Source: Anaerolineae bacterium
GTDB lineage: Bacteria > Chloroflexota > Anaerolineae > CG2-30-64-16
Direction: 5' to 3'
Length of the DNA stretch: 54,861 bases
Assembly (NCBI GenBank): GCA_026645775.1
Contig: JAPKMS010000112.1
Coordinates: 1-54,861, forward strand
This document shows, one piece after another, positions 6,255 through 39,852 of this stretch; the first letter of the stretch is position 1, and each line of letters starts with the position of its first letter. The notes under the pieces are model-generated. The model was not told the DNA's origin. It worked only from the letters and a program-made list of their open reading frames with translations, and did not search any database. The position numbers were made by a program, and so were the translations under genes.

Positions 6255-6968
6255 ATGGTCAAAGGTAAGTGGTGGTGGATCATTTCCGGTGCAGGTATTG
6301 TGCTCTTGTTGGTGCTAGCGCAGCTCCATCTGCCGGCCGCACAGGCGCAATGCGGCACGCAGGCCTCTTCGTGCAAGAACTGCCACGAGGTGCAGGCCAA
6401 GGACCCGGTGAACAGCAAGGGAGCCTGGCACACCGATCACGCCTTCGGTGATTTCTGCGAGTTCTGCCATGCCGGCAACGTCCACGCGACCGACAAGGAT
6501 GCGGCGCACCAGGGGATGGTCGACTGGAATGCGGACGTGAAAGCGTCCTGTGCGAGCTGCCATGCCACCGATTATGAAGCGAAGGGGCAGACGTACGCCT
6601 CAACGTTGGGGGTGGAGCTCAATACCGGCGGTGGTGGGGCGGCGGGCACGAGCGCCACTGCGGCGATCAGCACAACGGCCGCGTGCGCCCCCCAGGGCGG
6701 TGAGGAGATCGATTACAACCTGCTCTATGCACAGCAGACCGCCCGACAGCCGTTAGTCTCCAACTGGGGCAACCTGACCCTGGGCGCGATGATCCTGGGG
6801 CTGGGCGCCGTCTTCTTCGGGACCGCCTGGACGTGGGAAGGCTGGGGCCGCAAAGTGGCCGCGTGGATCCGGAACAACGTGACACCGGTCACCCAGGCGG
6901 TGGCTGACGTGTCCAAGCGCCCCGAGGAAGCTGAAGACAGCGCCTCCGATCCCAAGAAACACGCGTAG
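6255..6968 (+). CDS. Membrane-anchored trihaem c-type cytochrome
   Basis: Signal peptide, three CxxCH motifs (CKNCH, CEFCH, CASCH), and one C-terminal TM helix (LTLGAMILGLGAVFFGTAW). Confidence 0.75.
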   Translation: MVKGKWWWIISGAGIVLLLVLAQLHLPAAQAQCGTQASSCKNCHEVQAKDPVNSKGAWHTDHAFGDFCEFCHAGNVHATDKDAAHQGMVDWNADVKASCASCHATDYEAKGQTYASTLGVELNTGGGGAAGTSATAAISTTAACAPQGGEEIDYNLLYAQQTARQPLVSNWGNLTLGAMILGLGAVFFGTAWTWEGWGRKVAAWIRNNVTPVTQAVADVSKRPEEAEDSASDPKKHA

Positions 6969-6999
6969 CTGACGCATACGAACGCACGAGGAGTACGTT

Positions 7000-7530
7000 A
7001 TGAGAGTGATCAAGCTGCTCAGAAAAAGTGAGTGGTCTCCCTATCTCGGAGGCGCCTTGTTGGGCCTATTGGCAGTGTTATCGCTGGCTTTCACCGGTCG
7101 GCTTCTGAGCGGGTCAGGTGGCTTCGAGACCCTGGGTGGGTCGATCGTCCAGGCCGTCAGCCCGGCCGCCGGGGACAACATCTACTGGAAGTTTGTGATG
7201 CCGGCCGGGATCGGCTGGAGCGTGTTCGTCCTGCTGGGGATCTTCGTGGGGGCATTGGTTGCCGCGCTGGCTGGCCGCACCTTCAAGTGGCGTGCGGTCT
7301 CGGACGATCAGTGGATTCGCATCTTTGGCCCGGCGCGTTGGAAGCGTTGGCTGGTCCTGTTCGTGGGCGCCATCCTGCTGGAATACGGCGCGGGCATCGC
7401 CGGCGGCTGCACCAGCGGGCTGGCCATCTCGGGCGGCCTGCAACTGGCGCCGTCGGCCTTCCTCTTCATCATGGGGATGTTCATGTCCGGCATTCCCACC
7501 GCCATGATCTTCTACCGCGGGAGGTATTAG
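7000..7530 (+). CDS. YeeE/YedE-family sulfur/selenium transport protein, first half
   Basis: 176 aa, polytopic. Family motif GIAGGCTSGLAISGG is present. The stop directly abuts the next gene's ATG (TAGATG). Confidence 0.85.
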   Translation: MRVIKLLRKSEWSPYLGGALLGLLAVLSLAFTGRLLSGSGGFETLGGSIVQAVSPAAGDNIYWKFVMPAGIGWSVFVLLGIFVGALVAALAGRTFKWRAVSDDQWIRIFGPARWKRWLVLFVGAILLEYGAGIAGGCTSGLAISGGLQLAPSAFLFIMGMFMSGIPTAMIFYRGRY

Positions 7531-8088
7531 ATGCTCCAGTATGTTCCGGCCCTGATAATTGGCTTCGCGTTCGGCTGGCTGCTGCAGAAGGCCGGCCTGA
7601 CCAGGTACAGTAAAATCGTGAATGTCTTCCGCTTCACCGATCTGGCCGTCCTCAAGTTCATGATGTCCGCGATGGTGGTGGGGATGATCGGGGTTTACGC
7701 CCTGAAGGATTTGGGGTTGGTCAGTCTCGTTGGCACGATGCCCACTTACATCGTGGGTAACCTGGTCGGCGGCTTGATTTTCGGCGTCGGCATGGCCGGC
7801 GCCGGCTACTGACCAGGCACCTGTGCCGCCGGCGGCGGCCAAGGCAACATCGACTATATCATCCCCGGTTTCCTGGGCTTCCTGGTTGGAGCGATCCTTT
7901 TCGGCCTGACGTACCCGACGGTGTTCCCCGCGATCTCCGCGATCGCCAATCTGGGCATGGTCTACCTGGCCGAACTGCTCAACGTCAACCATTGGCTGTT
8001 TATCGCGCTCTTCGCGCTCATGACGCTCTTTTTGTTCTATGTCCTGGAAAAGAAGGGCGGGACCCGACGGGATCGGGCTGCTGAATAA
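7531..8088 (+). CDS. YeeE/YedE-family transport protein, second half, interrupted by in-frame TGA at 7810-7812 (candidate selenocysteine, or a nonsense pseudogene)
   Basis: The 93-aa ORF ends ...GVGMAGAGY-TGA. The same frame continues PGTCAAGGGQGNIDYIIPGFLGFLVGAILFG... for 92 more codons to TAA at 8086-8088. The TGA sits where the family motif G-Y-C-P-G-T has its Cys. Confidence 0.6.
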
Positions 8089-8109
8089 CAGGCCAGGTGG
8101 AGCCAGAAG

Positions 8110-10338
8110 ATGACCGACGAATCGAACCCATCGAGCAGAGTCTCGCGGCGGCAGTTTTTGCGTTGGGCGGGCGCGACCGCGGTGGCCGGTGCGCTGGCCG
8201 CCAGCGGCCTGGATCTGCTGCATCCCCTGGGCACGGAAGCTGCGTTCCGTTCGGTGCGCCGCCTGAGCGACGCGCCCCCCACGCAGTTCGACCGCGAAGT
8301 GGCGTCCCTGTGTGAGATGTGCGTCTGGCGCTGCGGCTTGCGCGCCAAAGTCAAGGACGAGCGGATCTACAAGCTGGAAGGCAACCCCTTCCACCCGCAT
8401 TCCCGCGGCATGCTGTGCCCGCGCGGCCAGGCCGGCATCGCCACCGCCTACGATCCCGACCGGCTCAAGTACCCCCTGATCCGCAGCGGCCCGCGCGGCA
8501 GCGGCAAGTGGCGGCGGCTCAGTTGGAACGAGGCGCTGGACTACGTCGCGGCCCAGATGCTGGCGATCAAGAACCAGTACGGCGCCGAGGCGATGATCTT
8601 CAGCACGACGCACAACCTGGTCCAGACGCAGTTCGAGAACATGCTGCACGCCTTCGGCACGCCCAACTATGGGACACAGCGCTCGCTCTGCTACAACTCC
8701 ATGATCACCGCCAACCTGATGACTTTTGGCCTGGAAGAGCCGGGCCGCGATTACAGCCAGGCTCGCTACATCATCTACACCGGCCGCAACGTGCTGGACA
8801 GTATCTCCAATTCGGAGTCGCAGGATGCCATGTCGGCGATCGCACGAGGGGCGAAGGTGGTGGTCCTGGAGCCGCGTTTCACGAAGACCGCGGCCAAGGC
8901 AACCGAGTGGCTGCCCATCAAGCCGGGCACCGACCTGGCCTTCCACCTGGCGCTCATCCAGGTGATCATCGAACAAGAGCTGTACGATGCCGATTTCGTG
9001 CAGGAGTACACCGTTGGGTTCGCGGCACTGCGAGAGGCCACCCAGAGCTACACCCCCGAGTGGGCGGCCGGCAAGTGCGAAATCCCGGCTGAAACCATCC
9101 GGCGCATCGCCATCGAGTTTGCCCAGGCGGCCCCGCAAGCGTTTGCCCATCCGAACTGGCGCACCAGCAATTTCCTGAACTCTTTCCAGACCGAGCGCGC
9201 GATTGCCTGTCTCAACGCGCTGGTCGGCAGTTGGGGGCGTCCCGGGAGCCTGCAGCCGGTGGGCGGCGAGGAGGGCGCAGGGCTGGGCAGCATCCCGCAG
9301 CCTGCGTACCCGCGCACCGCCGCGGCGCGGTTGGACGGCGTGCCCTGGAAATATCCGCTGGTGCCGCTCAAGCTCGGCGTGTTCCAGGAGCTGCGCGACA
9401 ATATCATCACCGGGCAGCCCTATCAGCCGCACGGCTGGTTTGTCTACCGGCAGAACCCGGCGCAGTCGTTGCCGGACCGGACCAAGACGGCCGAGGCCAT
9501 GAGCAAGCTGGACTTCATCGTCACGATTGACGTCAGCATGAACGACACCGCCTGGTTCAGCGACGTGGTGCTGCCGGAGGCGTCGTATCTCGAACGCTAT
9601 GACCCGCTGGCCGTCGTGGACGGCACGGTCTTCATCCGCCAACCGGCCATCGCGCCGCTCTACGAGAGCAAGCCCGGACTGTGGATTTTCAAGGAATTGG
9701 GACAGCGGCTGGGCCTGGGCGACTACTTCCAGTACAAGGACGAAGAGGACTACCTGCGACAGCAGCTCGCGCCGCTGGACATCACCCTGGAAGAGCTGAA
9801 GGCAAAGGGGCACTATCGCCTGCCTACCAGCGCGGCCGAGGGTGACAAGGCGTTCGTCTTCAACACGCCGACCGGCAAGATCGAGCTCGCCTCGCAGACC
9901 CTGGCTAACAGCGGCTTCTCGGCTGTGCCTGTTTGGGAGGAACCGGTCAGCAACGCGCCCGGCGCCTTCTTCCTGCTGTCCGGCAAAGTGGCCCAGCATA
10001 CCCAGTGCGCCACGCACAACAACAAGCTGCTCCACGAGCGCATGCCGTCGAACCCGCTGTGGCTCAATACCGTGCCGGCGGCCGAGCGGGGTATCCGGGA
10101 CGGCGACGAGGTCTGGGTCGAAAGCCCGGCCGGGAAGGTCAAGACGGTCGCCTACGTCACCGAGAAGATCCGGCCCGACTGCGTGTTTATGACGTTCGGT
10201 TTCGGCCATGTCAGCAAGGCGCTCGTCACCTCCTACGGTCAGGGGATCAGCGATAGCAGCCTGCACCTGAGCTTCACCGATCCGGTGAGCGGCTCGCAGG
10301 CGCTCTCACAGACCTTTGTTACGGTCACCAAAGCATGA
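8110..10338 (+). CDS. Molybdopterin (bis-MGD) oxidoreductase catalytic subunit, PsrA/PhsA-like, Tat-exported
   Basis: 742 aa. Twin-arginine signal SRRQFLRWAGATAVAG, N-terminal 4Fe-4S motif CEMCVWRCGLRAKV, candidate Mo ligand in QRSLCYNSM. No in-frame TGA. Confidence 0.9.
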   Translation: MTDESNPSSRVSRRQFLRWAGATAVAGALAASGLDLLHPLGTEAAFRSVRRLSDAPPTQFDREVASLCEMCVWRCGLRAKVKDERIYKLEGNPFHPHSRGMLCPRGQAGIATAYDPDRLKYPLIRSGPRGSGKWRRLSWNEALDYVAAQMLAIKNQYGAEAMIFSTTHNLVQTQFENMLHAFGTPNYGTQRSLCYNSMITANLMTFGLEEPGRDYSQARYIIYTGRNVLDSISNSESQDAMSAIARGAKVVVLEPRFTKTAAKATEWLPIKPGTDLAFHLALIQVIIEQELYDADFVQEYTVGFAALREATQSYTPEWAAGKCEIPAETIRRIAIEFAQAAPQAFAHPNWRTSNFLNSFQTERAIACLNALVGSWGRPGSLQPVGGEEGAGLGSIPQPAYPRTAAARLDGVPWKYPLVPLKLGVFQELRDNIITGQPYQPHGWFVYRQNPAQSLPDRTKTAEAMSKLDFIVTIDVSMNDTAWFSDVVLPEASYLERYDPLAVVDGTVFIRQPAIAPLYESKPGLWIFKELGQRLGLGDYFQYKDEEDYLRQQLAPLDITLEELKAKGHYRLPTSAAEGDKAFVFNTPTGKIELASQTLANSGFSAVPVWEEPVSNAPGAFFLLSGKVAQHTQCATHNNKLLHERMPSNPLWLNTVPAAERGIRDGDEVWVESPAGKVKTVAYVTEKIRPDCVFMTFGFGHVSKALVTSYGQGISDSSLHLSFTDPVSGSQALSQTFVTVTKA

Positions 10339-10937
10339 AGGACAAGCGAGAGATGGATCATCCTAACACCTCGCCAGCGAAAACCCGGTGGGTCTTCGTG
10401 ATGGAGCCCGAGCGTTGTATCGACTGCGAAGCCTGCATGATCTCCTGCTCCGTTGAGAATGAGGCGCCCCTGGGCAAGCACCGCAACTGGATCGTCAAGA
10501 TCGACAAGGGCATCTACCCCAACCTGAGCACGACCTTCCTGCCCGAAAACTGCCATCACTGCTCCAATCCGCCGTGCGAGCGCGTCTGCCCCACCGGGGC
10601 CACCTATCGCCGGGAGGATGGCCTGGTGTTGGTCGATTTCGACAAGTGCATCGGCTGCAAATACTGCATGATGGCCTGTCCCTACGACGCCCGCTTCGTG
10701 AACGAGGAGAAAAAGGCAGTTGATAAGTGCACGTTCTGCGTCCATCGGCTGGACGCCGGCCTGCCGCCGGCTTGCGTGGAAACGTGCATCGGCCATGCGC
10801 GCCACTTCGGCAACATCAACGACCCGGAGAGCGAAGTCGCCAAGCTGTTGGCGAAACACCCTTACTATCGCCTGTACGAAGAAGCCGGCAGCGAGCCCGC
10901 GATCTATTATATCTACAGCAACCGGGTCATCGAATAA
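10335..10937 (+). CDS. 4Fe-4S ferredoxin subunit (PsrB/NrfC/DmsB-like)
   Basis: 200 aa. Cys clusters CIDCEACMISC, CHHCSNPPCERVCP, CIGCKYCMMACP and CTFCVHR. ATGA overlap with the catalytic subunit gene. Confidence 0.9.
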   Translation: MKDKREMDHPNTSPAKTRWVFVMEPERCIDCEACMISCSVENEAPLGKHRNWIVKIDKGIYPNLSTTFLPENCHHCSNPPCERVCPTGATYRREDGLVLVDFDKCIGCKYCMMACPYDARFVNEEKKAVDKCTFCVHRLDAGLPPACVETCIGHARHFGNINDPESEVAKLLAKHPYYRLYEEAGSEPAIYYIYSNRVIE

Positions 10938-11047
10938 GCCTTCGTTTTCTCATGTTGAGCATATCCGCGGCATGAGGTTCGTTGCGGCGAATCACCAGCG
11001 ATCGCGAAGCATCCTTTAGAAATCATCTCGTAGTGGAGCGCCTGATC

Positions 11048-12046
11048 ATGGAACACATCGAATTCCATTGGAATGCGTTGATCGTCTTCTATCTTTTCAC
11101 AGCCGGCGTGAGCGCGGGCGCTTTCTTTGTCTCCGGCCTGGCCACCTACCTGGGCGGCGAGCGTTACAAACGAATCAGTCGCATCGGCGCGCTGATCGCG
11201 CCCTGGCCCGTGATGCTGGGCCTGCTTTCGCTTGTCTTCGACCTGACCAAGCCGTTCGAGTTCTGGTGGCTCTTCCTGACGGTCCAGGCTACATCGCCAA
11301 TGTCCATCGGCGCCTGGCTGCTGACGCTTTTCACCGTGGTGGCGCTCGTCTACTTCCTGCTGTGGTTCCCGCGACCCTGGCGCGATTTGCTGAAGGCGCC
11401 CCAGCGGCGGAGTGCCCCGAACACGCCGAGGATCTGGAAGCCCCTGGACCAGGCGCAGATCAACAAAGCCCGGCGCATCGTGGCGGCCATCGGCGCGCCC
11501 ATCTCGATCGGGGTGGGCATGTACACCGGTGTGCTGCTCGGGGCGGTGCCGGCTCGTCCCCTCTGGAACACGCCCATGGTGGCCCAGCTCTTCCTGGTCT
11601 CTGCCATGAGCACGGGAGCCGCGGCGGTGCTGCTCATCGCCGCCCTGCTCCGCCCGAAGGCCGGCCATGATTATCTGCACGAGGAGCGCCGCTTCCTGGT
11701 CAGCCTGGATATCATGTTGATCCTGGTCGAGATCTTCATCGTGACGCCCTTCTTCCTGCACCAGGCCTTGAGCACCTGGAGCTCGTCCAGCAGCCTGCGC
11801 ATCCTCTTGGGCGGGCCGTATACCCTGCTTTTCTGGCTGGGCTTTGTTCTGCTCGGCCTGCTGGCCCCGTTGGCGATCGAGGGCTTCGAGCTCTTCCCGG
11901 TCGTCTGGCGGGAACAGGCGGTGCGGTACAGCCGGCTGTGGGCGGGCCTGAGCGCTACCTTGGTGCTGGTCGGCGGCGCTGTGCTGCGCTATGTGATCGT
12001 GTTTGCCGGCCAGGTGTCGCACTTCTTGCCGCTGTACACGCGTTAG
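11048..12046 (+). CDS. NrfD/PsrC-type polytopic membrane quinol-interacting subunit
   Basis: About 8 hydrophobic helices. Start taken at MEHIEFHWNALIVFYLFTAGVSAG (typical NrfD N-terminus), with GGAG upstream. Confidence 0.85.
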   Translation: MEHIEFHWNALIVFYLFTAGVSAGAFFVSGLATYLGGERYKRISRIGALIAPWPVMLGLLSLVFDLTKPFEFWWLFLTVQATSPMSIGAWLLTLFTVVALVYFLLWFPRPWRDLLKAPQRRSAPNTPRIWKPLDQAQINKARRIVAAIGAPISIGVGMYTGVLLGAVPARPLWNTPMVAQLFLVSAMSTGAAAVLLIAALLRPKAGHDYLHEERRFLVSLDIMLILVEIFIVTPFFLHQALSTWSSSSSLRILLGGPYTLLFWLGFVLLGLLAPLAIEGFELFPVVWREQAVRYSRLWAGLSATLVLVGGAVLRYVIVFAGQVSHFLPLYTR

Positions 12047-17192: not shown

Positions 17193-18628
17193 TCGCCACT
17201 GCTGTGCGGCTGGCTCGGCTCCAACAGGTAACCTTGACCATATTTCCGCACAATGGAGTAGGGCGCCTGGGCTTTGCTCAGCTTAGTGCGGAGTCCCATC
17301 GCGGCGATCTCGAGGGCGTGTTTCGCCCCGCCTGCCTCTTTCGCTTTCCAGATGGCGCGCTCCAATTCGGCGTCTGGCACGAGCTGGCCGAGCTGCTGGT
17401 ACAGCGCCAGGAACAATTGTGCGCTCTTGGTGCGAGGTCCCAGATCCATCTCGGCCAGCAGACTGTGCGGCGCGGCCAGCACAGCCTGGGAGGCGGCCGG
17501 CGTCGGGATCAACTCAGCCGCGCGGCGGTTGACGAAAGCCGCAAACAAGGGCGAGAAGAACTCCAAACGGTCCGGCACGGCCGGATCTTCCGCTATGATC
17601 GCCTCATCCTGCAGCGTACGGGCGAACGCGCGGCCGGCGACCTGGCTCCAGTCGGTGTGCGGATCGCGATACACCCGCAGGAACTCGCGCAGATCGCCCT
17701 CCCAGTGATTCCAGAGATACTGGAAGATGACCTCCAAGGCGCTATTCACCGTCTGCCAGATGAAGTTTCGGGTCAGCGGTTGGACGCGGGTGGCGCGCAG
17801 GTGGTCGTAGGCGGTGGCCGCCGCGCGCATCAGCACATACGGGTGCCGGCCAACGAGTTCGAGCAGCAATAGCTGGTCGCTCCGGCTGAATTGGAGCTCG
17901 GCATCCGGTGCAACCAGTGCCTCTGCCGCGGTCTCGGGTTCCAACAACCGCACGTCCAGGCGCTCCAGCCGATACAGCAGCGGCGACCCGGCCAGATCGG
18001 GGAAGATGTCGACAAGCGGCCTCCGCGTGGCCAATACCAGCGATGCATACCCGGTCAATTCCGTCAGGTATTGGGTGGACTCGGTATCTGCCAGCAGGTG
18101 GGCTTCGTCCACATGATCCAGGCCGAGGATCAGCCGCAGGCCGTGCGCTTGCGTCGCCCGGGCCAGCGCGCTGAGACGTGCGCGCGTGCCGACCCGATCG
18201 AGCTGGGCCGCAGTCTTATCCAACTGAATTTCGTGGGCCAGGACGCGCAAGTCAAAATCGGACCGGCGTTCGAGCGCAGTCAGGACCGCCTCAGTCAGGT
18301 CGATGAAGGGATTGTCGGGCGACGCGCCCGCCAGGTCCTGGTAGATCGGTACCAGGCAGCTCGGGGCCAGGCCTGGCCCGATTGCGGCGCTGAATGGGGC
18401 GCGCTGCAGGCACCCTCCCGCCGTGCCCAGGTCCCGCAGGAGGGTGGTCTTGCCGATCCGCCGCGGGCCGACCAGGTTCAGGCTGGCCGGATCGCCCCCG
18501 GTGAGACGGCGGGTCATAGTCGTGAGGAGCTCCTGGCGCCCATACGCGCGTGGCGGCACGCAGCCGGGCCGCGGGGTGAAGGGGTTTTGCCAGTGACCGG
18601 TTTCGCGCGTTGACGTAACGTCAGGCAT
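17189..18628 (-). CDS. STAND/AAA-type P-loop ATPase with a C-terminal OmpR/PhoB-type winged-helix DNA-binding domain
   Basis: Start at MPDVTST, whose ATG overlaps the upstream gene's stop by 8 nt. Walker A GPRRIGKTTLL, Walker B-like LRLILGLDHVDE. C-terminal LFLALYQQLGQLVPDAELERAIW...LEIAAMGLRTKL...IVRKYGQGYLL matches the Trans_reg_C pattern. Confidence 0.75.
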   Translation of the reverse strand: MPDVTSTRETGHWQNPFTPRPGCVPPRAYGRQELLTTMTRRLTGGDPASLNLVGPRRIGKTTLLRDLGTAGGCLQRAPFSAAIGPGLAPSCLVPIYQDLAGASPDNPFIDLTEAVLTALERRSDFDLRVLAHEIQLDKTAAQLDRVGTRARLSALARATQAHGLRLILGLDHVDEAHLLADTESTQYLTELTGYASLVLATRRPLVDIFPDLAGSPLLYRLERLDVRLLEPETAAEALVAPDAELQFSRSDQLLLLELVGRHPYVLMRAAATAYDHLRATRVQPLTRNFIWQTVNSALEVIFQYLWNHWEGDLREFLRVYRDPHTDWSQVAGRAFARTLQDEAIIAEDPAVPDRLEFFSPLFAAFVNRRAAELIPTPAASQAVLAAPHSLLAEMDLGPRTKSAQLFLALYQQLGQLVPDAELERAIWKAKEAGGAKHALEIAAMGLRTKLSKAQAPYSIVRKYGQGYLLEPSQPHSSGD

Positions 18629-21600
18629 GTGTAAAGTCCTCTCCTGTGATTCGAGCCGGTTGATACGCAGCGGCCCAGGCCGCGAAAAGCGGGATCTGCA
18701 CCCGGAACTCCGGTGTGCCGGCAACGGTCACGCCGGCAGCCAGCACATCGAGCCGCACCAGGGCCGCCAAGAGCTCACGCGCGGCGTCCGCGTCCCGTTG
18801 GCCGGGCGGTAGGAGCGCCGGCTCGGGCGACCATGCGTCAGTGCGGGCTGATCCCAGTCGGTGCAAGAGCCGGCAGGCGCCGGCCGTGACCGGCGCGCCG
18901 GTCATGTGTCTGAAATAGAGATCGGCGTGGCGATCCGTGGCAATGCTGAGTTTGGCTGCCTGTTCGGCATCGGGCAGCTCAAACACGCGGTGATCCGTGC
19001 GCTTGAGCTGTTCGACCGCCTGATAGCCGACCACTTTGAGCAGGTAGGGGTTCCGCGCCGTCACCGTCACGACGTACTCCAAGGCTTCGGCGCGCCAGCT
19101 CAGGCCCACCGCCTCGGCCTCCGTGGCCAACAGGGCCTGCGCCGCCGTCGAATCCAGGGGGCCCAATCGCAGCAGTTGGGCGATCTCCAACAGCCCGGCG
19201 CCGCGGCTGGTGAGGGAATGCATGCTTGTGAGCGCGGCCGCCTGCACCACAAGCACAAACGCCACATCCAGCTCTCCGCCCATCAGGTAGCGCAGGTTGT
19301 CGAAGATGCGCGGATCGAGCCGGCCTTGCCGCACCTGGTCGTCGAGCGAGCTGAACTCGTCCATGAGCACGACCAGCCGGATGTCGCGCCGGCTGGTCAG
19401 GGCCGCGGCCGTGCGTCGACAAAACTGGGCGAACACGCCGACCGGATCCTCTGCCAATTGCTGCCGCTCCTGCGTTGTGAGGTAAGTCAGCCCTCCGCCC
19501 AAGAGATCGGGGATCTGGCTGAGGCGTTCGGAGCTGGCTCGGATCACCTCGCCGAGCAGACCGGCCAGGCCCGGGCCGCGGTCCGGCTGGCAATCCACGT
19601 ACACGCCCACCCAGGTATCGCCGATCCCGCTCCGCTCAAGATGTCTGAGGAGTGATGTCTTGCCGATGCGCCATGGTCCATACACCACCAAGGGCCCCAC
19701 CGGCTCGGGTCGCGCAATAAAGGCCTTAACCGCATCCAACTCCTCCGCGCGGCCGAGAAAGTCTCCCAGGCGATAGGCTGGCTGGTTGAAGCGATAGGGG
19801 TGCGCGGCGGCCAGATGCCGCCGCAGCTCACGCGCCTCTTGTGGCGTCATGGCCAACGGCCGTGTTGCGACCTCTTGAATGCCCGGCACGGCCTTGATGG
19901 CAGCGACCAGGGCGCTGGCGTCGTCACCGCCCCGCACCTCAGCCAGGACCTGGATGTGCGCCGCGTCGTCAACCAGGCGCTCGGCCAGCACTCGGTGCAG
20001 GGCGTGGCCTTGGGCGTGGAATGGCTCCAGCACCTCGGTCAAGAGGCGCTTGCGATCCGCGCCCAGCACGAGAAATTCGTACTGGCTCTCGTCTGCAGGC
20101 GGGCGCCAGGTCAACTCGGTCGTCCGTGCATCGTGCGGCAACCAGCGGCAGTCGGTCGCGTGGAGAGTGATCCGTTCATGCGGCGTGTTGGGCTGGTAGA
20201 AGTGGCCGGCGATCTCCGTGTCCACCGCGGGCTTGCAGCATTGGGCCACGCGCACGCGCTCAGCGCGCAGGCCCAGGGGCCGGCCGTCGGGATAACCGAC
20301 ACGCTGCGCGACCTCCTGCGTCGCGATGCGGAGCGCCACAGCCTCCGGTGCGGGCCGGCCGCCGGCGACCTGTTGATACAGGGCCTCGCTGTCACCGCAC
20401 TGGTACCAGTGTGCAGCCTCATCGAAGTAGGCGCTGAGGCGCACCTTGCTCAACGTGATCCCCAAGCGTTTGCACTGCTGTTCAACGGCCTGCTCCAAGA
20501 GCAGCTTGCCGCGGTCGGCGCCCTGCTCGCGGTAGGCCAGCGCCTTCTGGATACGGGCGGTCGCCGCCGGGGTCTGCACGGTCTGCAGCCACTCCCGCCG
20601 CAGGCGGGACGGCAACCGCGGGTCAAACCGGATGTTGATGATATCGGCGTTGGCCAGGTGAAAATCGACCGGCACCTCCACACCGTTGACCTGGGCGCCG
20701 GCATAGAATTGTCCCTGCTCCGAATGCAGTTGAAACGCAAAGTCGACTGGTGTGCTCTGGCTGGGCAGGGTGTGCAACTCGCCCAGCGGCGTGAAAACGT
20801 AGGTCGGCTGGGCATACGCACCCGGTTCTGCAGTGCGTAGGATGCTCAGCTCGCGCTCTGTGCGATGCCACCAGGCTTGCCGGAGCTGTTCTGGGGCTGC
20901 TGATCCCTGTTCCCATTCCGCCGCGCGGCCGCGGCGATTGCTCTGCTGTGCGGCCTCCGTGCAGATGAAGCAGTCGACCGTTGGCCGTTCACCGCGCGTG
21001 GTTTCGATGGCCACGGTCGTGTGGATCATGCGATAGGCATTGAATTTGGGTGCGCCGAGATAGTCGCGCAAGGTGCCTGTTACGTGCCGCCCCAGGCGGT
21101 GCAGGCAGCCCAGAATCAGGTAACAGGTGGCCTCATCGGCCGCAGTTACGTCGACCGCGATCCGGCCGGCCAGCGCGCGGGCAGCCTGATCGCGGTCGAG
21201 ATCCGGCCCCAGGTGCGGATAGGCGCCGCTCTGCTCGAAGACTCGCGCCGCGCGCACCGGGCGGATGGTCACTGTTACCGCGGCGCCGTGAGCGGGGAGG
21301 TTGGCGCGCAGGGTGGCCTCAACCAACCCCAGAATCTCCTCGCGCCGCGCGTCGTGCTGTCGGATCCAACCGGCAATCTGTTCGGCGCGGGCCGGCTCCA
21401 GCAGACGGAGCAGCGCCTCGGCTGCTTGGCGCTGCTCATCCCCCATCCCAAAGCGCTCCAGCATTGGTAGGCAAGCCACGCGCAGGTGTTCGGCCTGGGT
21501 CAGTTTGTCTGCCGACTGCTGTTCGCCCAGGTCTTCGAGTTGCGCCAGCATGTGTCCAAGGGCCACGAAGGTGACCGGCTCATCCGTGAATGAGGCGATG

Positions 21601-21968
21601 AATAGTTTTTGCAAATGCTGAAAAGCCGGGCGCGCCAATTCAGGCCGGCCGCGCGGCTGCGGGTATAGGGTCCGGTTGAGGCTGTGGAACCGGTGCACCA
21701 GGTCCGCCACCCTCGGTGTTACCCGGGCTGTGGATAGGGCATCAGTGGCCGGATCGGCGCTGGTGGGCAGCGCGACCAAGCGGGCCGCGGCCTGCCATTC
21801 CGCTGGACAATGCCAGGCCGCCAGCCGGTCGGCGGCCCGCGCCGCTATCTGGATGGTGCGCTGGGTCGCGCCATCCAGCGGGACGCCGGCTTCGGCAACC
21901 AGGCGCTCGGCAGCGGCCAGCACTTCGGCAGCCGATTGTGCGGTGTCCGGGTATTGTTCAGGGTGCAT
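18621..21968 (-). CDS. Long RelA/SpoT homologue (pseudo-HD, degenerate synthetase, TGS, Zn-finger/CC, ACT/RRM) fused to a C-terminal STAND-type ATPase
   Basis: Synthetase-like DYLGAPKFNAYRMIHTTV...VDCFICT...RAAEW. TGS YVFTPLGELHTLPSQSTPVDFAFQLHSEQG..GAQVNGVEVPVDF. AQCCKPAVDTEIAGH...ITLHATDC is the CC domain. An ACT-like block follows, then Walker A GPWRIGKTSLL and Walker B LVVLMDEFS. Start at MHPEQ, with GAGGAG 8 nt upstream. Confidence 0.75.
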   Translation of the reverse strand: MHPEQYPDTAQSAAEVLAAAERLVAEAGVPLDGATQRTIQIAARAADRLAAWHCPAEWQAAARLVALPTSADPATDALSTARVTPRVADLVHRFHSLNRTLYPQPRGRPELARPAFQHLQKLFIASFTDEPVTFVALGHMLAQLEDLGEQQSADKLTQAEHLRVACLPMLERFGMGDEQRQAAEALLRLLEPARAEQIAGWIRQHDARREEILGLVEATLRANLPAHGAAVTVTIRPVRAARVFEQSGAYPHLGPDLDRDQAARALAGRIAVDVTAADEATCYLILGCLHRLGRHVTGTLRDYLGAPKFNAYRMIHTTVAIETTRGERPTVDCFICTEAAQQSNRRGRAAEWEQGSAAPEQLRQAWWHRTERELSILRTAEPGAYAQPTYVFTPLGELHTLPSQSTPVDFAFQLHSEQGQFYAGAQVNGVEVPVDFHLANADIINIRFDPRLPSRLRREWLQTVQTPAATARIQKALAYREQGADRGKLLLEQAVEQQCKRLGITLSKVRLSAYFDEAAHWYQCGDSEALYQQVAGGRPAPEAVALRIATQEVAQRVGYPDGRPLGLRAERVRVAQCCKPAVDTEIAGHFYQPNTPHERITLHATDCRWLPHDARTTELTWRPPADESQYEFLVLGADRKRLLTEVLEPFHAQGHALHRVLAERLVDDAAHIQVLAEVRGGDDASALVAAIKAVPGIQEVATRPLAMTPQEARELRRHLAAAHPYRFNQPAYRLGDFLGRAEELDAVKAFIARPEPVGPLVVYGPWRIGKTSLLRHLERSGIGDTWVGVYVDCQPDRGPGLAGLLGEVIRASSERLSQIPDLLGGGLTYLTTQERQQLAEDPVGVFAQFCRRTAAALTSRRDIRLVVLMDEFSSLDDQVRQGRLDPRIFDNLRYLMGGELDVAFVLVVQAAALTSMHSLTSRGAGLLEIAQLLRLGPLDSTAAQALLATEAEAVGLSWRAEALEYVVTVTARNPYLLKVVGYQAVEQLKRTDHRVFELPDAEQAAKLSIATDRHADLYFRHMTGAPVTAGACRLLHRLGSARTDAWSPEPALLPPGQRDADAARELLAALVRLDVLAAGVTVAGTPEFRVQIPLFAAWAAAYQPARITGEDFTHA

Positions 21969-21999
21969 GGCCCGGCTCCTCGGGTGGCTTTTGACTCCT

Positions 22000-22049
22000 A
22001 TCATACCCGATTGGTTGCGCGGGGGCAAATCGCGCACAAGACTCTTGTG
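22000..22049 (-). promoter_or_regulatory. Candidate promoter plus perfect 7-1-7 palindrome upstream of the RSH-STAND operon
   Basis: On the minus strand: TTGCCC (22023-22028), 17 nt, TATGAT (22000-22005). Palindrome CACAAGA-C-TCTTGTG at 22035-22049 lies just upstream of the -35. Confidence 0.35.
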
Positions 22050-27942: not shown

Positions 27943-30900
27943 TCAGGACTCGTCTTCGATCAGGTTTTGATGTTGCAGTCCGTTGTCACTCCACGGGATG
28001 CGCGGCGACATCGCCTGGCCGCCCACGAAGAGCAGCACGTTCTTGCCGAGGCTGCCGCAGCGAGCGACGGCCGTCGAATCGCTCGCCGCCACAGTGACTT
28101 CGTAGACAAGGCCGGTGGTCTCTGCGCGGGTGCGACCCCGGCCGCACACCGCACCGTCTACTAACGCCAGCACCGACATGCCGGCCGCCGGCGCAAACTT
28201 GGGGCTGGTGTTGACCAGGCCGTAAAGCGTCAGCGGCGGCCGGAGGGGCTGCTTGCGGGTCCAGGCGGTGGGGGTGGTCGGCGTCGCCCCCAGGCTTTCT
28301 CCGCCCGGGAATGCGCCGCGCAGATGGAGCGTGATCGGTTCGGTCGCCGTGATGTGGATCCAGTACCCGTGCGAGAACTCCAGGGTGGCCAGGTCGTTGC
28401 GGGGGCCAGGAACGGGCGCGTACAACTTCCAGGAGTCTGCCGCGTCCGCCGCGTCGAAGCCGTAGACGGCGGAGTAGCTGCCGGCGATGGAGGCGAGCAC
28501 CGCACTGATCGGCCTGGCTGCTGCTGGTACGCCAGCCGTCTGCACGGGGTAGCCGAGCAGGTTCCAGCCGGGCTGGAGGGTGATATCGATGTGCGAGAAC
28601 AACGCGTAGAGCCCCGGACCCACCAGCCGCGCCGAAATCAGATTGTGCTCAAGATCGAGTTTTTGCCCGTCAAGGATGCGCCAGGTTTTTGCGTTGGCTT
28701 CCCAGAAATACAGGTGGATGAAAGCCTCCTCGCCGGCCGGGACGTCGGACTGCAGATACTCGAAGGCGATGGAGCTCCGGCCGAAATCCGTGATCGGCTC
28801 CGAGGCCGCCAGCCAGTAGGCTCGGCCGATGGGGGTCGCATAGGAGATCGGATCCTGCAGCCAGGTGGCGGGCTGCAGGGTGAACGACCACTCCCGATCT
28901 GCGCCGAACTGCTCCTCGTCGGGATAGACCATCACCTGACCATCCACCGAGGCCGCCGGCGCACGCAAGCCGCGCATGCGAACGCGCAGGCCGCGCATAC
29001 GCACGCTGCGCGGGTTGTTCGATGCGCCGATCGCACCGATGCGCACGGGGTTGCCTCCCACGGCAAACTCGGCTACCGCCTGGCGCGGGTTTGTACCCAG
29101 GCCCAGTCCTTGAGTCTCGCCGACCAAGACATAACCTTCCAGCACCGGGGCGGCGGAAGTGAGGCTTGCACCATAGACGCAGCCATCCTGCAGACAGCCC
29201 TGGTGTGTCAGGGTGATGGGCGCAGGCGCAGGTCCATCCGTGGGATAGAGCCGGGCGGTCAAGGTCAGCGCTGCGTTGGCGGCGTTGTTCGGCAGCGTGA
29301 CGCTGATCTGCAGGGTTCGCGTCGATTCCGGCGAGATGATGATCTGTGGCTGCCAGCCCGCAGGTTGTTGCATTTCCAATTGGTCATCGCCGGGCGTGAT
29401 GGCCTCGCAACCGACCTGGCCATTGATCAGATCGTACACGCAGAGCCGATCGTTGGGCCGGGCGCCCCGCGCGGTCACCTGATCCCCGGTGGGCTGACCC
29501 AGGTCGATTAAGGTCGGATAGGGCATGCCCTGAAACAGATAAGCGCGTGCCTGGCTGCTGGTCTGATCCCCTGGGGTCAGGCCCTTGAGGTAGAAGATCG
29601 GCACCTCCAGCGGCTGGGTGGAGGTGATCGCTTCGGCCGGACACTCGAAAACAGGCGAGGCGGTTTCAGCCACCACTTGATTCGGCGCCGGCGGGCCAAA
29701 ACCCGTGGGCACGCAGAACCGGCGATAGACCGACTCCGGCGTCTCGCCCGGCTGACCGTAAAGCCGCGCTAACCAGGTCATTGGATCGGCGGCGGGGTCG
29801 ACAGCCTGGAACGAGATCTGCGTCACTGCCAGGGGCAGGAGACTGGGGCCGGACTCTGTCTCGGTGAAATTGCCGGTCGGTGCATTCAGCTCAGGATAGA
29901 AGCGTACGATCGTTTCCCAATCCGATCGCTGTGTGTTCAACTCCGATAAGGTCTTGACGCAATTTGATGTCTTCCAGCCCTGGTCCGGGTGGAACTCGCT
30001 GTAGGCGTTGCTGTACGGGTTGTTCATGGCGCCGGGGCAGTCGGTATCGTCGAGCGGAATCAGCAGGTCATCCGCCAGCGTGAGGTAGTCATCATCCAGG
30101 AACAGCAGGTAGTGCCCCAGCTCATGCGCCAGCGCAGCAGGCCAATCATCGCCCAGGTTGCCTGCGGTGGCGTCACCGTAGCGGTTCCAGGTCAAACCCA
30201 TCCGCACCTGCCCGGGCAGGTAGGAGATGACTCGCGGCGCAGTGCTGCCTGAGCCCTGCACCGACTGCACCGTCTCGCTGAAGACCTGTGAGACGATGCC
30301 GCCTTGGTCTGCGTTGGGGCGCAGGCGGTTGGACGCGTAGATGCGGATGTGGGCATTGTTCCAGGCGTTGGCGCCGTCGGGCAGGGAGCTGCGCCGGGCG
30401 TCGTGATAGATGCGCACGTTCCCCAAGGCGACCTGGCCGTTGGTCCAGTCGTACAGCAGCTCTGAGGTGCGGCGTAGATCGGCGCTAAGCCGTGCCGTGT
30501 ACTGCGCATCGTTGCTGGCGTTCCATTCCAGCGCCACGTTGAGATCGAACAACAGGAGCGGGTTCTCGCTGCTCACCGTCAGCGTTTGCACGCCGCCGGC
30601 CGTGACCGCGGAGGCCGCGAGCCCATTGACGGTGGGCCGGGCGCTGGTGTAGTGCAACGGGCTCAGCTTCAGCGCCAGGCCCCAGCCCAGCAATTGCACC
30701 GGCTCGGTGTCGGGCGTGGAGGCTTCCAGGATCCACGTTCCATCGGCCAGCGGGGCCGCGGCCGTGGTCAAAGGCGATGTGAAGATGCGCCGGGTCTCTA
30801 CACCGCAGGTTGGACGGGATTCGTCCGCACAGAGCGATGCACCGGCCGGCAAAGGGCCATCCAGCAATGAGGCCCGGTCGCCGTTCGGCGCCTCCAGGAC

Positions 30901-33900
30901 CAGCGCAACGGAGATAGGCAGGGTGGCCGAGATGTCGACCCAGACTTGGATGTCAGCGATGCGCCGGGCGTCGGAGATGACGAGACGGGAGCGAAGGGGA
31001 TTTGCGGAGGTGGCCGTCATCCGCAGCGGGAAGGCGTCGCTGCTGGCATTGAATCGCCAGGCCGTCGTGTCTGTTACCTCGGCCGATGGCCAGATCGCGA
31101 TCAGCTTGTCGCTCTCGGTCACGGTTCCGCCGGCCTTGATCTCGGCGCGACCCGGCAGGAAACCGTCGGTTTGCGTGCGGTACGGTTGCTCGTGTCCGCC
31201 CAGCGGCTCGGCCCCGCGTTCCTTGCCGGCCGGCAGGCGGTAGACAACAGCTCCGGCGGAGGGAACCGTTCCGCTGTACACCGCCACCAGGGTGCCCTGA
31301 ACGCTGAATGGGAGGGTGGTCGCGGTGACATAGGGCCATTGGTTCAGGTTGGGAACGGCGTCGGTGTAGCGATAGGTGCCCTTGAGGGTGGGGGTATCCG
31401 GCTGTGCGTAGGCCCGGATACGGAGCACCGTGTTATCCGAGCGGCCGATCACGCCGGACTGCCCCACGTCCCAGGTGATCTGATGGCGCTCCCCACCCGG
31501 GCTGGCCGTCAGATGTCTGAGCGCATCCGTGGGGCGACCGCTCACTGCTGTCCAATGCCCCCCGCCGTCGAGCGAATAATCGATCGCCACGCGGCCGACG
31601 GTCTCGCTTTCATCATCCTTCAGCGTGAATGCGAGCGGCACTCTCTGCGTATCCACGATCTGGCGCGAGGAGAACTGGGCTGCGTTTGGGGTGGTGACAG
31701 GCCGCGTAAACGTCACGATGGGCAGCCGGTTATCGGCATAGCGCGAGTCTCGGAGTTGGTTGTAGTGGATGCGCAGACGTTGGCTGCCGTAGCGGTTGCC
31801 CTCGATCACATCTACGGCGCCGTTGCCATCCATGTCGCCGAGCGCCACGGACCGGGTCCAGTAGGCGTCGCGGAAAGTAGTTGCGACAAAGTGTCCGTTG
31901 CCATCGTTCAGGTAGAGGACATTCTGGGCTGCTTTTTGGTCTGTCCCCCAGTTTCCGGCCACGAAATCGATCGTGCCATCGCCGTTGACGTCTCCCGCGG
32001 CGATGCTGTAGGTGCGGTCGGTGCTCTGGCCGAACGACTGCGCCAGCCGCGCCGGAAAGTTGCCCGCTCCATCGTTGAGATAGATGGTCCCCAAGTTGAA
32101 GAAGTTCCCTACCAGGATGTCGGGCTTGCTATCGCCGTTCACATCCGCCACCGCCAGGGCCCGGGTGTAGTCGCTGCCGGTTCCGAAAGACCGGCGGAGC
32201 CGATTCGGGAATTCTCCTTGACCGTCGTTTAGGTAGACATAATTCCAGTCATTCCGATTGCCTACCACGATGTCCAATCTGCCATCCCCGTTGAGGTCAG
32301 CGATTGCGACAGCCGTAGTGGAGTTGTCGGGCGCGCCCAACACGAAACTCCGTTCAGCAGAGAAACGGCCGGCGCCATCATTCGAATAGACGCCGCAGCC
32401 GTGATTTGAGCTGCACGTGACCAGATCAATGCCGTGCGCGCCGTCGAGATCGCCCACGGCCAGGCTGGTGTCGAGGTGCCCTTGAGAGGCGAGCGAACCG
32501 GGGCTGGAAATCGGGAGACGGTGCTCCAGGGGGAAATGCCCCAAACCATCATTAAAATAGATTGCGTTCTGTGCGTCGTTCACGTTGCCGGCCGCGACAT
32601 CCAGGGCGCCATCTCCGTTGAAGTCTGCCACGGCCAAGGCCCAGGTGGCCTCATCTCCCGCCCCGAACGGCTCGGCACGGAAGCGGCCAGGCCCCTCGTT
32701 GACAAAAACGACGTTCTCCCGCGTAGCGCCGGCCATCACGCCGGAGACGATATCCAATTGGCCATCTCTGTTTACGTCGCCGAGTGCGATCGCAGCGATT
32801 TCGCGCCCTTGCTCCAGATCGGTCACCGAGAACGCCGGCGTTTCCCCGTTCAGATAGATGATGTTCTGGTGCCCTTCATTGCCGGTAACGATGTCCAAGA
32901 AGCCGTCGTCGTTGACATCGGCCAGGGCGATCGCACGGGTTGCTTGACCGGGTGGTCCAAAGCCAGCGGTCAGCGCGCGCGTTAACCCTACCGGCGCTGA
33001 GCTGATTCTGACCCGATTGAGCCAGGCCGTATCACCCAGCCCCACTGCGAGATCCAGCAGCCCATCACCGTTCAGATCGCCGGTTGCCACGGCCCAGTTT
33101 TCGCCCGCGCCATCACCAAACCGCGCCGATGTAGCGAAGTTTTGGTTTCCTTGATTCGTGTACAAGATGTGGGGCTTATTTCTGTCTCCGGTTGCGTACA
33201 GGGAGACAAGGATGTCCAGCCCAGCGTTGCCGTCAAAGTTGCCCAGCGTGATGTTGCGAATCTGGTCTCCAGACCTACCGATGGTGCGTCGGTCGCGGGC
33301 CTGGCTGCTGGCTGAATCATAGAAGATCAGGGCCGCCCCTTTCACCGGCGCCAGTACCACGTCCAGGGAGCCAGTTCCATCCACATCACCCAGGGCCAGG
33401 GATGTCGCTCCATAGCTGGATGCGCCGAGCGTCCGGGTGAGCGGGAAGTGTGCGGCGCCATCGTTGAGCAAAATGAGGGTTTCCCCCAGTTTACGGGCCA
33501 GGACAACGTCGAAGTAGCCGTCCCCATTCATGTCACCCAGGGCGACGGTGGCTCTGCTGCCGGGGCGCTGCGGGGGGACGATGGTTTTGGCTTGAGCGAG
33601 GTGGCCCGTTCCATCGTTCAGATAGCGGTCGCTTGACCCGTCGCCGTAGCCCACAACCACATCCAGGTCGCCGTCGCCGTCGAGATCGCCGGCGGCCAGG
33701 CTGCTGGTGTCATCCTTGGCGCCGAACAAGAGCAGTTGCTCCGCCGGGAAGTTGCCGTGGCCGTCGTTGAGCGCGATGCTGGAGGCTTCGCCCCGGTTGC
33801 CGGCGATAATATCCAGGTCACCGTCCCCATCCATGTCACCGACCGCCAGCGCAATGGTTTTGTCGGCGCCGGTGCCGAACGGACGGCGGACGGGAAAGGT

Positions 33901-37100: not shown

Positions 37101-37625
37101 CTCCTGCTCGATATCCAAGGGCCGCAGATTCCCCGGGCTGGCAGTGACGGCCAGAACGCGCAGCGGCAGATTGGAAACCAGTGGCTTTGCCGGTTCAGTA
37201 AGTTCGATGTAGCGAACGATCGGTGTGGTAATGGAGAGGGCGAACGGGTCGGGGCGGTCGGGTGCACGCAAATACTCCCATGGCCAATCGGCCAGTTCGG
37301 GCGCTGTTTTGTCCAGCCGCAGGCGAATGCGCAGGCCCAGGCCGCGGCGCGTCGCCTCATCGAGGCTGCGGCGCAAGCTGGCGCCCACTTGATCAGCCAG
37401 CGCCACACGGTAGAGCGTTTCGCCGAGAAGCTCCGGGGATGGCAGGGGCAGGTCACCGGCCGAACGATCGAAATATCCGGGCAAGGCCGCGAGTTCAGCC
37501 TCTGTGAAGGGAGCGGCGAAGTCTCGCACCGCTTCGCTGACAGGTGAGTTGAGCACCCGGGCCTGGTAGCCACCGGGTGCGCGGGTGATCAGTAGATCGA
37601 AATTCTCGTAGGTGAGGATCGTCAT
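34101..37625 (-). CDS. CHAT protease domain, NB-ARC/STAND ATPase and TPR-repeat protein
   Basis: Start at MTILTYENF. CHAT dyad HFIGHG (His codon 36961-36963) and LNACEAG (Cys codon 36819-36821). Walker A GMAGVGKT (36375-36404), Walker B VLCLDDFH. About 500 aa of TPR-like helical repeats. Confidence 0.85.
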   Translation of the reverse strand: MTILTYENFDLLITRAPGGYQARVLNSPVSEAVRDFAAPFTEAELAALPGYFDRSAGDLPLPSPELLGETLYRVALADQVGASLRRSLDEATRRGLGLRIRLRLDKTAPELADWPWEYLRAPDRPDPFALSITTPIVRYIELTEPAKPLVSNLPLRVLAVTASPGNLRPLDIEQEWARLQRALKPLSERRLIVLERLESATLALLQARLRGDPVHLLHFIGHGFFDQAANVGGLVFEDGEGGSDIVTASALGLLLHDHEPLRLVFLNACEAGRGGRRDPFAGVAQRLVQGGVPAVAAMQFPITDRAALILSQEFYRALADGLPADAALSEARKAIKLAGDDPAWGTPVLFSRSGDNRLIAPETAKARPGALGAPPEPQQPPGVAGFVGREQELAHFAARLAADHVAVIAGMAGVGKTVLAARLARQVAADPSRIFWHQFHEGEGIETIIWRLAGMLYRHGQMALWELLEGARQSGGQPPPAEVLLDYLVQLLRGQDYVLCLDDFHYADGDPLVEKAVERLQILLSTGEVSLIVTSRRLPTVFRDQAFAPLGGLRMEDTRALLSTRSVALAPELLAELHHHTDGNAELLTLAVHALQRSRQPAQVIKRLADEDDIETYLLQEVDRGLTTDEKLVLGGVAALLGYPGTRSAIETTLASGNLKRTLRYLANRFLLREQEGRLDHEYLTHAIVQTFYYELLSRQERQALHRRAGEYYEQEEPDALKAALHYQRAGEAERAARLATADIWAAINQGQARLLRSLLLLLSQAQLAAAASIQVQLALGEVLAFLDETEAAQAAYQAALTALHAQAATPAARAGTARACLGLGTLLANRDPETALGWIERGLAAVDAEESDLTTALYNRKGTILLGQATYGEAIAALEQALALLPPAPSQLRGAVLNNLGSAWAWAGDSARGSQYTGEAVQVSTALHDTITLLSLISNIAIDKEIGGDWAGAGADYGEALRLAEQLGSLSEQARIHSLLGILRLHQGAESAAEEHLQRAVSLSRQIRSPEHLATTLPVLAQLHIGRHAWAPARAALAEAETLATEHGWDYILPETYASLALLALGQDQPDEALAQAEHSVVSAQQLAATVEEGKGLRVKGQALARLGRPHEAAAALEASLALLADADPYEAAQTQRCLAQLSESTGEHARSLGLLNQADAAFRQLGLEPPPR

Positions 37626-37863
37626 GGCGCACCCGCCGAAGCAAGAGACATCATCTGCAGCGTGCCTTCCTGCGGAGCCCGCGCGGTCGTCGGTCAGTGG
37701 CCAGGGTCTCAATTATTGGTATGTTATTCGTGAACTTGATGGGATGAGTGTGCCACAGGAAAACATACCTGTCAAGAGGGCCAACGGCGCCTCATGTGGG
37801 CAGCCCGGCCTGGCAATTGAAGTTGCGGTCACCCTTTGCAAGTATCTGCTCAATGATCCGGGG

Positions 37864-39804: not shown

Positions 39805-39852
39805 GCCGGGGGGCGCTATGTAGAGAGAACATAGCGTTCCACGGCTTTTTTG
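39805..39852 (+). terminator. Intrinsic-terminator-like hairpin plus T6 inside the aor leader (attenuator candidate)
   Basis: GCCGGGGG-CGCTATGT-AGAGAGA-ACATAGCG-TTCCACGGC, followed by TTTTTT (39846-39851). About 16 bp pair, counting G-U pairs and one bulge. Confidence 0.5.

Follow-up and report, generated by a model that had tools for sequence, protein, structure and literature searches.

Does the in-frame UGA at positions 7810-7812 of an Anaerolineae contig end a short membrane protein, or does it encode selenocysteine (Sec) in a longer one? The codon lies in a YeeE/YedE-type transporter gene on contig JAPKMS010000112.1 (assembly GCA_026645775.1), and the whole stretch of 54,861 nucleotides that was analyzed is called the window below. 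An original prediction, made from the letters alone, had singled out this TGA as a candidate Sec codon at a cysteine position. All the checks that could be run favor Sec, and we conclude from comparison with homologous loci that UGA 7810-7812 very probably encodes it. The following features carry the argument.

7531 to 8088, plus strand: gene for a PmpB-like (N-terminal-half) YeeE/YedE candidate selenoprotein, 185 residues if UGA-94 is Sec
7810 to 7812, plus strand: in-frame UGA, candidate Sec94, at the equivalent of the essential Cys91 of Spirochaeta thermophila YeeE/TsuA
7822 to 7824, plus strand: Cys98 (TGT) of the U-P-G-T-C motif, four residues past Sec94
7820 to 7844, plus strand: hairpin resembling a selenocysteine insertion sequence (SECIS), with lower stem CCU/AGG at 7820-7822 and 7842-7844
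7825 to 7830 and 7834 to 7839, plus strand: upper stem GCCGCC/GGCGGC of this hairpin, with apical loop GGC at 7831-7833
7000 to 7530, plus strand: PmpA-like (C-terminal-half) YeeE/YedE partner, 176 residues, matching PF04143 at 67 bits on profile positions 169-307

The UGA occupies an invariant cysteine position in a continuous reading frame

The open reading frame (ORF) at 7531-7812 terminates ...GVGMAGAGY-TGA. As had been described, the TGA stands in frame within 7531-8088, and the frame continues past it (PGTCAAGGGQGNIDYIIPGF...LFLFYVLEKKGGTRRDRAAE) to a TAA at 8086-8088 without any frameshift; the reported 92 further codons included the stop, and 91 are sense codons. At 62% GC, chance would leave 91 codons open with a probability of about 0.07, so that the length of the run proves little and is weak evidence alone; what decides is its content. 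The Pfam PF04143 (Sulf_transp) match spans the TGA, with residues 28-176 on profile positions 9-155, and the read-through protein scores 64.2 bits and its partner 67.2 bits, both above the gathering threshold of 27 bits. Homologues of the read-through protein number 796 at E < 1e-5, the full-length ones measuring 181-191 aa, and the best of them (P0001) is 88% identical across 100% of the protein and carries Cys at the TGA codon. G[YF]-C-PGTC is found at this position in all 14 homologues whose sequences were retrieved, and CPGTC in 107 of the best 120 homologues, which were collected without motif constraint. The TGA of the window aligns with the invariant Cys of this motif, bearing out the earlier proposal that it falls on the conserved Cys of the family. 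In two homologues, P0019 and one other, W stands in place of Sec (GFWPETC, WPGTC), apparently because a gene caller translated TGA as Trp.

If the TGA were a genuine stop, the locus would encode a 93-residue protein and a separate C-terminal protein of 55 aa starting at GTG 7921, and thus a three-piece transporter. Such is the form under which GenBank and RefSeq hold these genes, as a 93-aa "YeeE/YedE family protein", and the 55-aa ORF is also called in Logan assemblies. Yet GTG 7921 is the sole in-frame start past the TGA in the window, and the 36 codons that separate the two belong to the best-conserved part of the protein and include those for PGTC as well as for invariant Gly, Asp, and Tyr. 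Termination would also remove the residue equivalent to the essential Cys. We therefore reject the three-ORF split, which these 36 conserved codons ahead of the first possible start make highly improbable.

The TGA recurs across species and the codons past it are under selection

We scanned one genome for each GTDB species with a motif (GGN4GGNATGN9GGNTWY-TGA-CCNGGN4TGY; about 41 bits, with about 0.5 chance matches expected by our own estimate) and found TGA at this codon in at least 120 of these species-representative genomes. Counts and distributions of TGA-form loci given here and below are among the matches listed, so that a count out of 120 stands for at least 120 loci. Orthologues thus carry TGC/TGT or TGA at exactly this position, a comparison that the original prediction had called for. 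The TGA forms come mostly from Anaerolineae/Chloroflexota, several of them from Anaerolinea metagenome-assembled genomes (MAGs), and others from Deltaproteobacteria, Rokubacteria, Gammaproteobacteria, Nitrospinota, Bacillota, and Eisenbacteria. In nearly all of them, about 93 codons precede the TGA and 88-92 open ones follow it. When 98 TGA-bearing read-through proteins were aligned, every U fell in a single column, and mean pairwise identity was 0.66 upstream of the TGA and 0.62 downstream. Between the window and the TGA-bearing locus L009 (JAPLHB010000169.1), the ratio of nonsynonymous to synonymous divergence (dN/dS) was 0.10 upstream and 0.12 downstream at a dS of 0.58, and over all comparisons it ranged from 0.08 to 0.23 upstream and from 0.12 to 0.30 downstream. 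Judged by these values, the frame past the TGA is translated and purifying selection acts on it, a second point on which a check had been proposed. Furthermore, at least 30 Sec/Cys switches were inferred on a tree of 195 sequences, with certain Sec/Cys pairs up to 99% identical.

These data bear directly on whether the gene is a pseudogene, in which a recent TGY-to-TGA nonsense mutation has left the downstream frame still open. One base change suffices for this, the closest Cys form (L001) having TGT at this codon; the open run is of a length that chance can produce, and near-identical strains do not separate the two readings. However, the TGA is shared by the 120 or more species with downstream frames intact, dN/dS stays near 0.12 between TGA-bearing species at appreciable divergence (dS 0.58), and the RNA-level constraints described below are confined to TGA forms. 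With TGA orthologues lacking both frameshifts and a downstream dN/dS near 1, the pseudogene reading is effectively refuted and extremely improbable. A sequencing or assembly error at a true TGC or TGT codon likewise differs by one base, and nothing specific speaks for it. The identical TGA was recovered in independent assemblies of four sequencing runs (SRR14932513, SRR26809233, SRR26809234, and SRR32414324) as well as in many other genomes, which refutes this explanation and leaves it with next to no probability.

A SECIS-like hairpin distinguishes TGA forms from Cys forms

The GC-rich, hairpin-capable tract GCCGCC-GGC-GGCGGC pointed out earlier is present at 7825-7839, with 12 nt separating it from the UGA. 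The resulting hairpin has a 6-bp upper stem and a 3-nt loop starting with GG, at 18 nt from UGA to loop. Its free energy is -10.4 kcal/mol when only the upper stem is counted and -14.2 kcal/mol as a whole, and it passes each of the four criteria that the published bacterial SECIS (bSECIS) model sets, as quoted in PMC13188914. Because this DNA is GC-rich, fold energy alone is uninformative and a comparison with Cys forms was needed, for which we used 118 Cys-form loci from metagenomes that carry the same motif with TGY. The bSECIS criteria were passed by 114 of 121 TGA forms versus 30 of 119 Cys forms. The original prediction had called the hairpin "not diagnostic", which holds for energy taken alone and no longer holds in this comparison.

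Loops of the TGA forms are GGU, GGUC, CGGGA, or GGC, at spacings of 17-19 nt, and the upper stem begins 11-12 nt past the UGA, a distance shared with the minimal fdhF element of E. coli. The minimum free energy of offsets 9-39 was -13.9 kcal/mol in TGA forms and -9.8 kcal/mol in Cys forms (Mann-Whitney p = 5e-20). The difference extends to codon choice. Most Cys forms have AGAGEG in this stretch, where TGA forms have AG[G/S]GEG, and the Gly/Ser codons GGC, AGC, and UCC of the TGA forms make up the 3' arm of the hairpin. Where the amino acids are identical, the stem codons are near-fixed in TGA forms (e.g., GTC GCC GGG TCC GGC GAA in 31 of 32) and variable in Cys forms, and synonymous-codon entropy falls at codons -1, +5, +6, +9, and +10 in TGA forms only. 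In a 100-sequence alignment, 85.7% of cells were paired, compared with 38-62% when the partners were slid as a control. Moreover, a gammaproteobacterial lineage with AARAAAG and a deltaproteobacterial lineage with AAAFGEG keep a hairpin with a GG-containing loop although the residues encoded there are different. At the RNA level, TGA forms are subject to a constraint of their own.

A second GC-rich inverted repeat, CGGCGUCGGC...GCCGGCGCCG, lies immediately 5' of the UGA at 7786-7808 on the plus strand and was seen only as a chance Rfam alignment.

Weighing selenocysteine against other forms of read-through

Several observations weigh against Sec decoding. Folding of the region, as had been suggested, gave a mixed answer: the hairpin agrees with the bSECIS model, but the fold of 7810-7870 alone is no better than that of shuffles (z = 0.48; the longer segment 7790-7900 gave z = -1.51). 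Covariation in the 100-sequence alignment is modest, with double changes in 18 cells that are mostly G-U wobble, and L001, the closest Cys form, carries an identical hairpin sequence. Rfam produced no match over the whole window at gathering thresholds, and a permissive scan of 7750-7950 returned sub-threshold chance matches only and no SECIS family. Finally, selA, selB, selD, and tRNA-Sec were found neither in the 54.9-kb window (ARAGORN, Rfam, and Pfam on about 36 window ORFs) nor in 120 fetched 8-kb Sec-form loci, where tRNA-Sec was sought with ARAGORN.

On the other side, the cultured relatives Anaerolinea thermophila UNI-1 and Caldilinea aerophila are both SelD+ SelA+ SelB+ (Peng et al. 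2016, PMC5029168, Table S1), and A. thermophila has four selenoproteins (Tables S1 and S2 of the same study). By this analogy, and at the level of the lineage only, the group appears able to decode Sec; we infer that selABCD is present in the source genome and that selenium is actually incorporated.

The UGA could also be read through without Sec, either by a near-cognate or suppressor tRNA carrying Trp, Cys, or Arg, in which case the hairpin would do no more than stimulate the event, or by reassignment of UGA. UGA-C is a leaky termination context, the Sec machinery was not seen for this genome, and some gene-caller translations of homologues have W at this position, all of which would suit such a reading. 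Reassignment is nevertheless rejected, because TGA is the commonest ordinary stop of the window and ends 19 of its 36 genes. As for the remaining variants, the codon alternates with Cys codons only and does so at an essential Cys, which is the signature of a Sec/Cys pair; in position, in size, and in its G-rich loop (GGU, GGUC, GGC, or CGGGA), the hairpin matches a bacterial SECIS; and related cultured Anaerolineae and Caldilineae possess SelA/B/D. We consider read-through of this kind improbable and retain Sec as the reading of UGA 7810-7812.

Candidate Sec94 maps to a pathway cysteine of a split YeeE transporter

In a phmmer search of the PDB, residues 7-105 of the read-through protein aligned with S. 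thermophila YeeE (StYeeE, 6LEO; E = 8e-7), which places residue 94 on C91. In StYeeE, C22, C91, and C293 line the substrate path at its constriction, and the C91A and C293A mutants are inactive (PMC7449682). PmpB and PmpA correspond to the N- and C-terminal halves of YeeE, with cysteines equivalent to C91 and C293, and are proposed to form a heterodimer (PMC11582611). By their profile positions, the two adjacent half-size genes of the window form such a split transporter, C-half first and N-half second, with one conserved Cys position per half (the C91 and C293 equivalents). The original prediction had correctly recognized YeeE/YedE halves, and its wording needs one correction: by Pfam coordinates the TGA gene is the N-terminal half and the upstream gene the C-terminal half.

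The two genes abut (TAG at 7528-7530, then ATG at 7531), and a homologue of the partner adjoins the TGA gene in 106 of the 120 loci. As the original prediction had noted, the partner keeps AGGCTSG, in which Cys137 is encoded by TGC at 7408-7410 within 7000-7530. The codon at this motif is TGY, never TGA, in 115 cases, and TGA in only 4 loci, all outside the Chloroflexi. A phmmer search of the PDB with this A half gave no YeeE match, and on Pfam coordinates and PMC11582611 Cys137 would be the equivalent of C293. In the B half, Cys98 may serve Sec94 as a resolving or relay partner.

An AlphaFold2 monomer model of P0001, the 88%-identical Cys orthologue, was of moderate quality (predicted local distance difference test score of 69), with about five long helices and a short re-entrant helix, and a Foldseek search of the PDB with it gave nothing significant. 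The link to StYeeE consequently rests on sequence alignment. Scores against the YedE/FdhT models TIGR04112 and NF033796 were 19.3 and 37.5 bits (cut-offs 200 and 350), those against the TsuA/YeeE models NF041049 and NF052577 were 30.7 and 47.2 bits (cut-offs 645 and 400), and no dedicated NCBIfam model matched. The selenium link of YedE that had been invoked is therefore a family-level analogy: membership in PF04143 stands, and the protein lies outside the selenium-linked YedE subfamily. No YeeD/TusA-like partner was identified, the genes of locus L002 being without that Pfam domain and the small ORFs of 6255-12046 not having been scanned for TusA/SirA.

The transporter genes belong to a conserved respiratory gene cluster

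The genes that flank the transporter pair are the following.

6255 to 6968, plus strand: membrane-anchored tri-heme c-type cytochrome, 237 aa, with CKNCH, CEFCH, and CASCH motifs and a C-terminal hydrophobic segment
8110 to 10338, plus strand: Psr/Phs-like molybdopterin oxidoreductase catalytic subunit exported by twin-arginine translocation (TAT); Pfam Molybdopterin, Molydop_binding, Molybdop_Fe4S4, and TAT_signal
10335 to 10937, plus strand: 4Fe-4S electron-transfer subunit (PsrB/TtrB/DsrO-like); Pfam Fer4_11, with NCBIfam TtrB and DsrO-like matches under their cut-offs
10982 to 12046, plus strand: NrfD/PsrC-like membrane anchor; Pfam NrfD on the identical gene in locus L002

The order of tri-heme cytochrome, A half, B half, molybdopterin enzyme, and 4Fe-4S subunit is kept in Sec- and Cys-form loci alike, and an NrfD anchor, FmdE, a TorD-like chaperone, Rieske/cytochrome b, and a multiheme cytochrome lie further downstream. 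The cytochrome, which had no Pfam match, has a homologue in 86 of 120 Sec-form and 58 of 118 Cys-form loci. Homologues of the catalytic subunit, whose best NCBIfam match is PhsA (600 bits, under the cut-off of 694), occur in 93 of 120 Sec-form loci, and those of the 4Fe-4S subunit in 68 of 120. In a single case, the PsrB-like gene of L157 (APMI01036508.1), a TGA aligns with the Fe-S ligand Cys132 (K-*-DMC versus CTFC); it may be another Sec site or mark a pseudogene.

Elsewhere in the window, genes related to molybdenum or tungsten cofactors are abundant (485-1792 on the minus strand; 39850-41766 and 42100-45871 on the plus strand). They comprise MoeA, an aldehyde:ferredoxin oxidoreductase, and a xanthine-dehydrogenase-type trio of flavin adenine dinucleotide, 2Fe-2S, and molybdenum-cofactor subunits. 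The last of these classes is tied to the selenium-cofactor (YqeB/YqeC) trait, which is also present in A. thermophila; neither yqeB nor yqeC turned up in the window. Large multidomain ORFs on the minus strand at 18621-22037, 34101-37712, and 27943-34065 include a 1138-aa RelA/SpoT, TGS, and STAND NTPase fusion, a 1203-aa CHAT-AAA-TPR protein, and a 2040-aa FG-GAP repeat protein. An 853-aa ORF at 51381-53942 on the minus strand combines ABC-transporter ATPase and periplasmic-binding-protein domains and may be a fusion or mis-joined.

A proposed mechanism

We propose that 7000-7530 and 7531-8088 encode the half-size subunits of a PmpA/PmpB-type PF04143 membrane transporter, which would assemble as a heterodimer and whose second subunit would be a selenoprotein. 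During translation, the mRNA hairpin 12 nt past the UGA, with its apical GGC loop, would recruit SelB-GTP-Sec-tRNASec to the ribosome, where release factor 2 would compete with it. Sec decoding is consistent with the UGA-C context, a weak one for termination, and with an upstream TAC codon that is fixed. Sec94 would then replace the central pathway Cys (C91 of StYeeE) in a re-entrant loop at the transporter constriction, beside Cys98 in U-P-G-T-C and facing Cys137 of the partner. Given the conserved respiratory-enzyme neighborhood, the transporter most likely moves the sulfur anion, or a selenium analogue of it, that this enzyme handles. It might relay thiosulfate, polysulfide, or sulfane sulfur across the membrane in the service of the co-operonic TAT-exported Psr/Phs-like molybdoenzyme, its Fe-S and NrfD subunits, and the tri-heme cytochrome. 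Having a lower pKa and being more nucleophilic, Sec might speed thiol/sulfane exchange. Both the substrate and this kinetic benefit are matters that we purely infer, which counts against the proposal.

In its most specific form, the proposal is that the G-[YF]-U-P-G-T-C proteins constitute an undescribed subfamily in which Sec and Cys98 act as a covalent relay (selenosulfide/perselenide) in the heterodimer path, feeding or draining the Psr/Phs-like enzyme. We advance it tentatively, at slightly less than even odds. If true, these proteins would be among the most widespread selenoproteins of Chloroflexota, their Sec site would be one of few embedded in a membrane, and their annotation as a 93-aa fragment would be a systematic error.

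Annotation and implications

In GenBank, RefSeq, JGI, and ENA, the Sec forms are called as 93-aa "YeeE/YedE family" proteins (MCX6031910.1, WP_345308173.1, MBK7456205.1, HQX02325.1, and others), and one 90%-identity cluster holds both truncated members of 92-93 aa and Cys members of 181 aa. Hundreds of database entries would thus be truncated selenoprotein halves, and for that reason counts of the Chloroflexota selenoproteome are probably too low. The StYeeE structure paper proposed only hydrogen bonding of the pathway cysteines to the substrate (PMC7449682), whereas Sec at the C91 equivalent argues that these cysteines of the YeeE family do chemistry, as a nucleophilic or redox relay. The 30 or more Sec/Cys switches, together with residues seemingly shaped by the SECIS (Ala to Gly or Ser), would make a clean natural system for weighing the cost and benefit of Sec. 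The cluster of tri-heme cytochrome, PmpAB-like transporter, and PsrABC-like enzyme appears to mark an uncharacterized sulfur/selenium respiratory module in Anaerolineae.

Comparison with known systems

The finding has a precedent and is less novel than first assumed, since reviews already include a selenoprotein family of the YeeE/YedE type (PF04143, motif GUxSG, example WP_012471001.1; PMC13188914, PMC9312934). It was reported in five organisms by Peng et al. 2016 (PMC5029168), in Table S3 alone, YeeE being unmentioned in the main texts of that study and of Zhang and Gladyshev 2008. The listed family shares with ours the Pfam family and the replacement of a conserved pathway Cys by Sec, and both are known from bioinformatics only. 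It differs in the position of Sec, which in the window and in nearly all TGA forms lies in the N-half, PmpB-like subunit within G-[YF]-U-P-G-T-C. The window has G-Y-U-P-G-T-C in place of GUxSG, and its GGCTSG subunit retains Cys. The G-[YF]-U-P-G-T-C form is also much more widespread than the five organisms reported for the listed family. What we describe is therefore a known family with Sec in a different subunit and motif, widespread and under-annotated and not categorically new.

Both motifs occur in four loci. L022, L023, L080, and L112, from Rokubacteria/deltaproteobacterial MAGs, have TGA in both halves, with ADG-U-TSGH in A and G-F-U-PGTC in B, and GUxSG (as ADG-U-TSG) was seen only in their A halves. 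Truncated A-half products of 134 aa are common in this clade in the protein database. The published GUxSG motif would accordingly seem to belong to the A half. Five further loci (L038, L051, L054, L071, and L119, from Gammaproteobacteria/Acidiferrobacteraceae/Nitrospinota) encode fused YeeE-like proteins of about 370 aa with TGA at the C91 equivalent. These have GGF-U-PGTCAAR with the candidate Sec and GGGCTTG with Cys, and each has its own hairpin, e.g., CGCGGCCA-GGC-UGGCCGCG.

Among characterized proteins, StYeeE/TsuA (PDB 6LEO) and the E. coli YeeE-YeeD system are homologous to the read-through protein, with Sec94 falling on C91, the central of three path cysteines. TsuA is, however, a single chain of about 330 aa with nine transmembrane helices and three Cys, in contrast to the two chains of about 180 aa each found here, and the genomic context of the window pair is respiratory, with a Psr/Phs-like molybdoenzyme, and not one of cysteine biosynthesis. 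YedE/FdhT (TIGR04112, NF033796) belongs to the same superfamily, and its link to selenium comes from gene neighborhood (Lin et al. 2015, PMC5322559); it is thought to be a selenium transporter and is not reported as a selenoprotein in that study, and the window pair has no selD or yedF neighbor. PmpA/PmpB of Serratia (PMC11582611) likewise consists of two adjacent half genes with one conserved Cys each. Those are Cys proteins of about 130 aa with four transmembrane helices, whereas the window proteins measure 176 and 185 aa, and in the PmpB-like subunit Sec would take the place of the conserved Cys, accompanied by the extra Cys of the motif (CPGTC in Cys forms).

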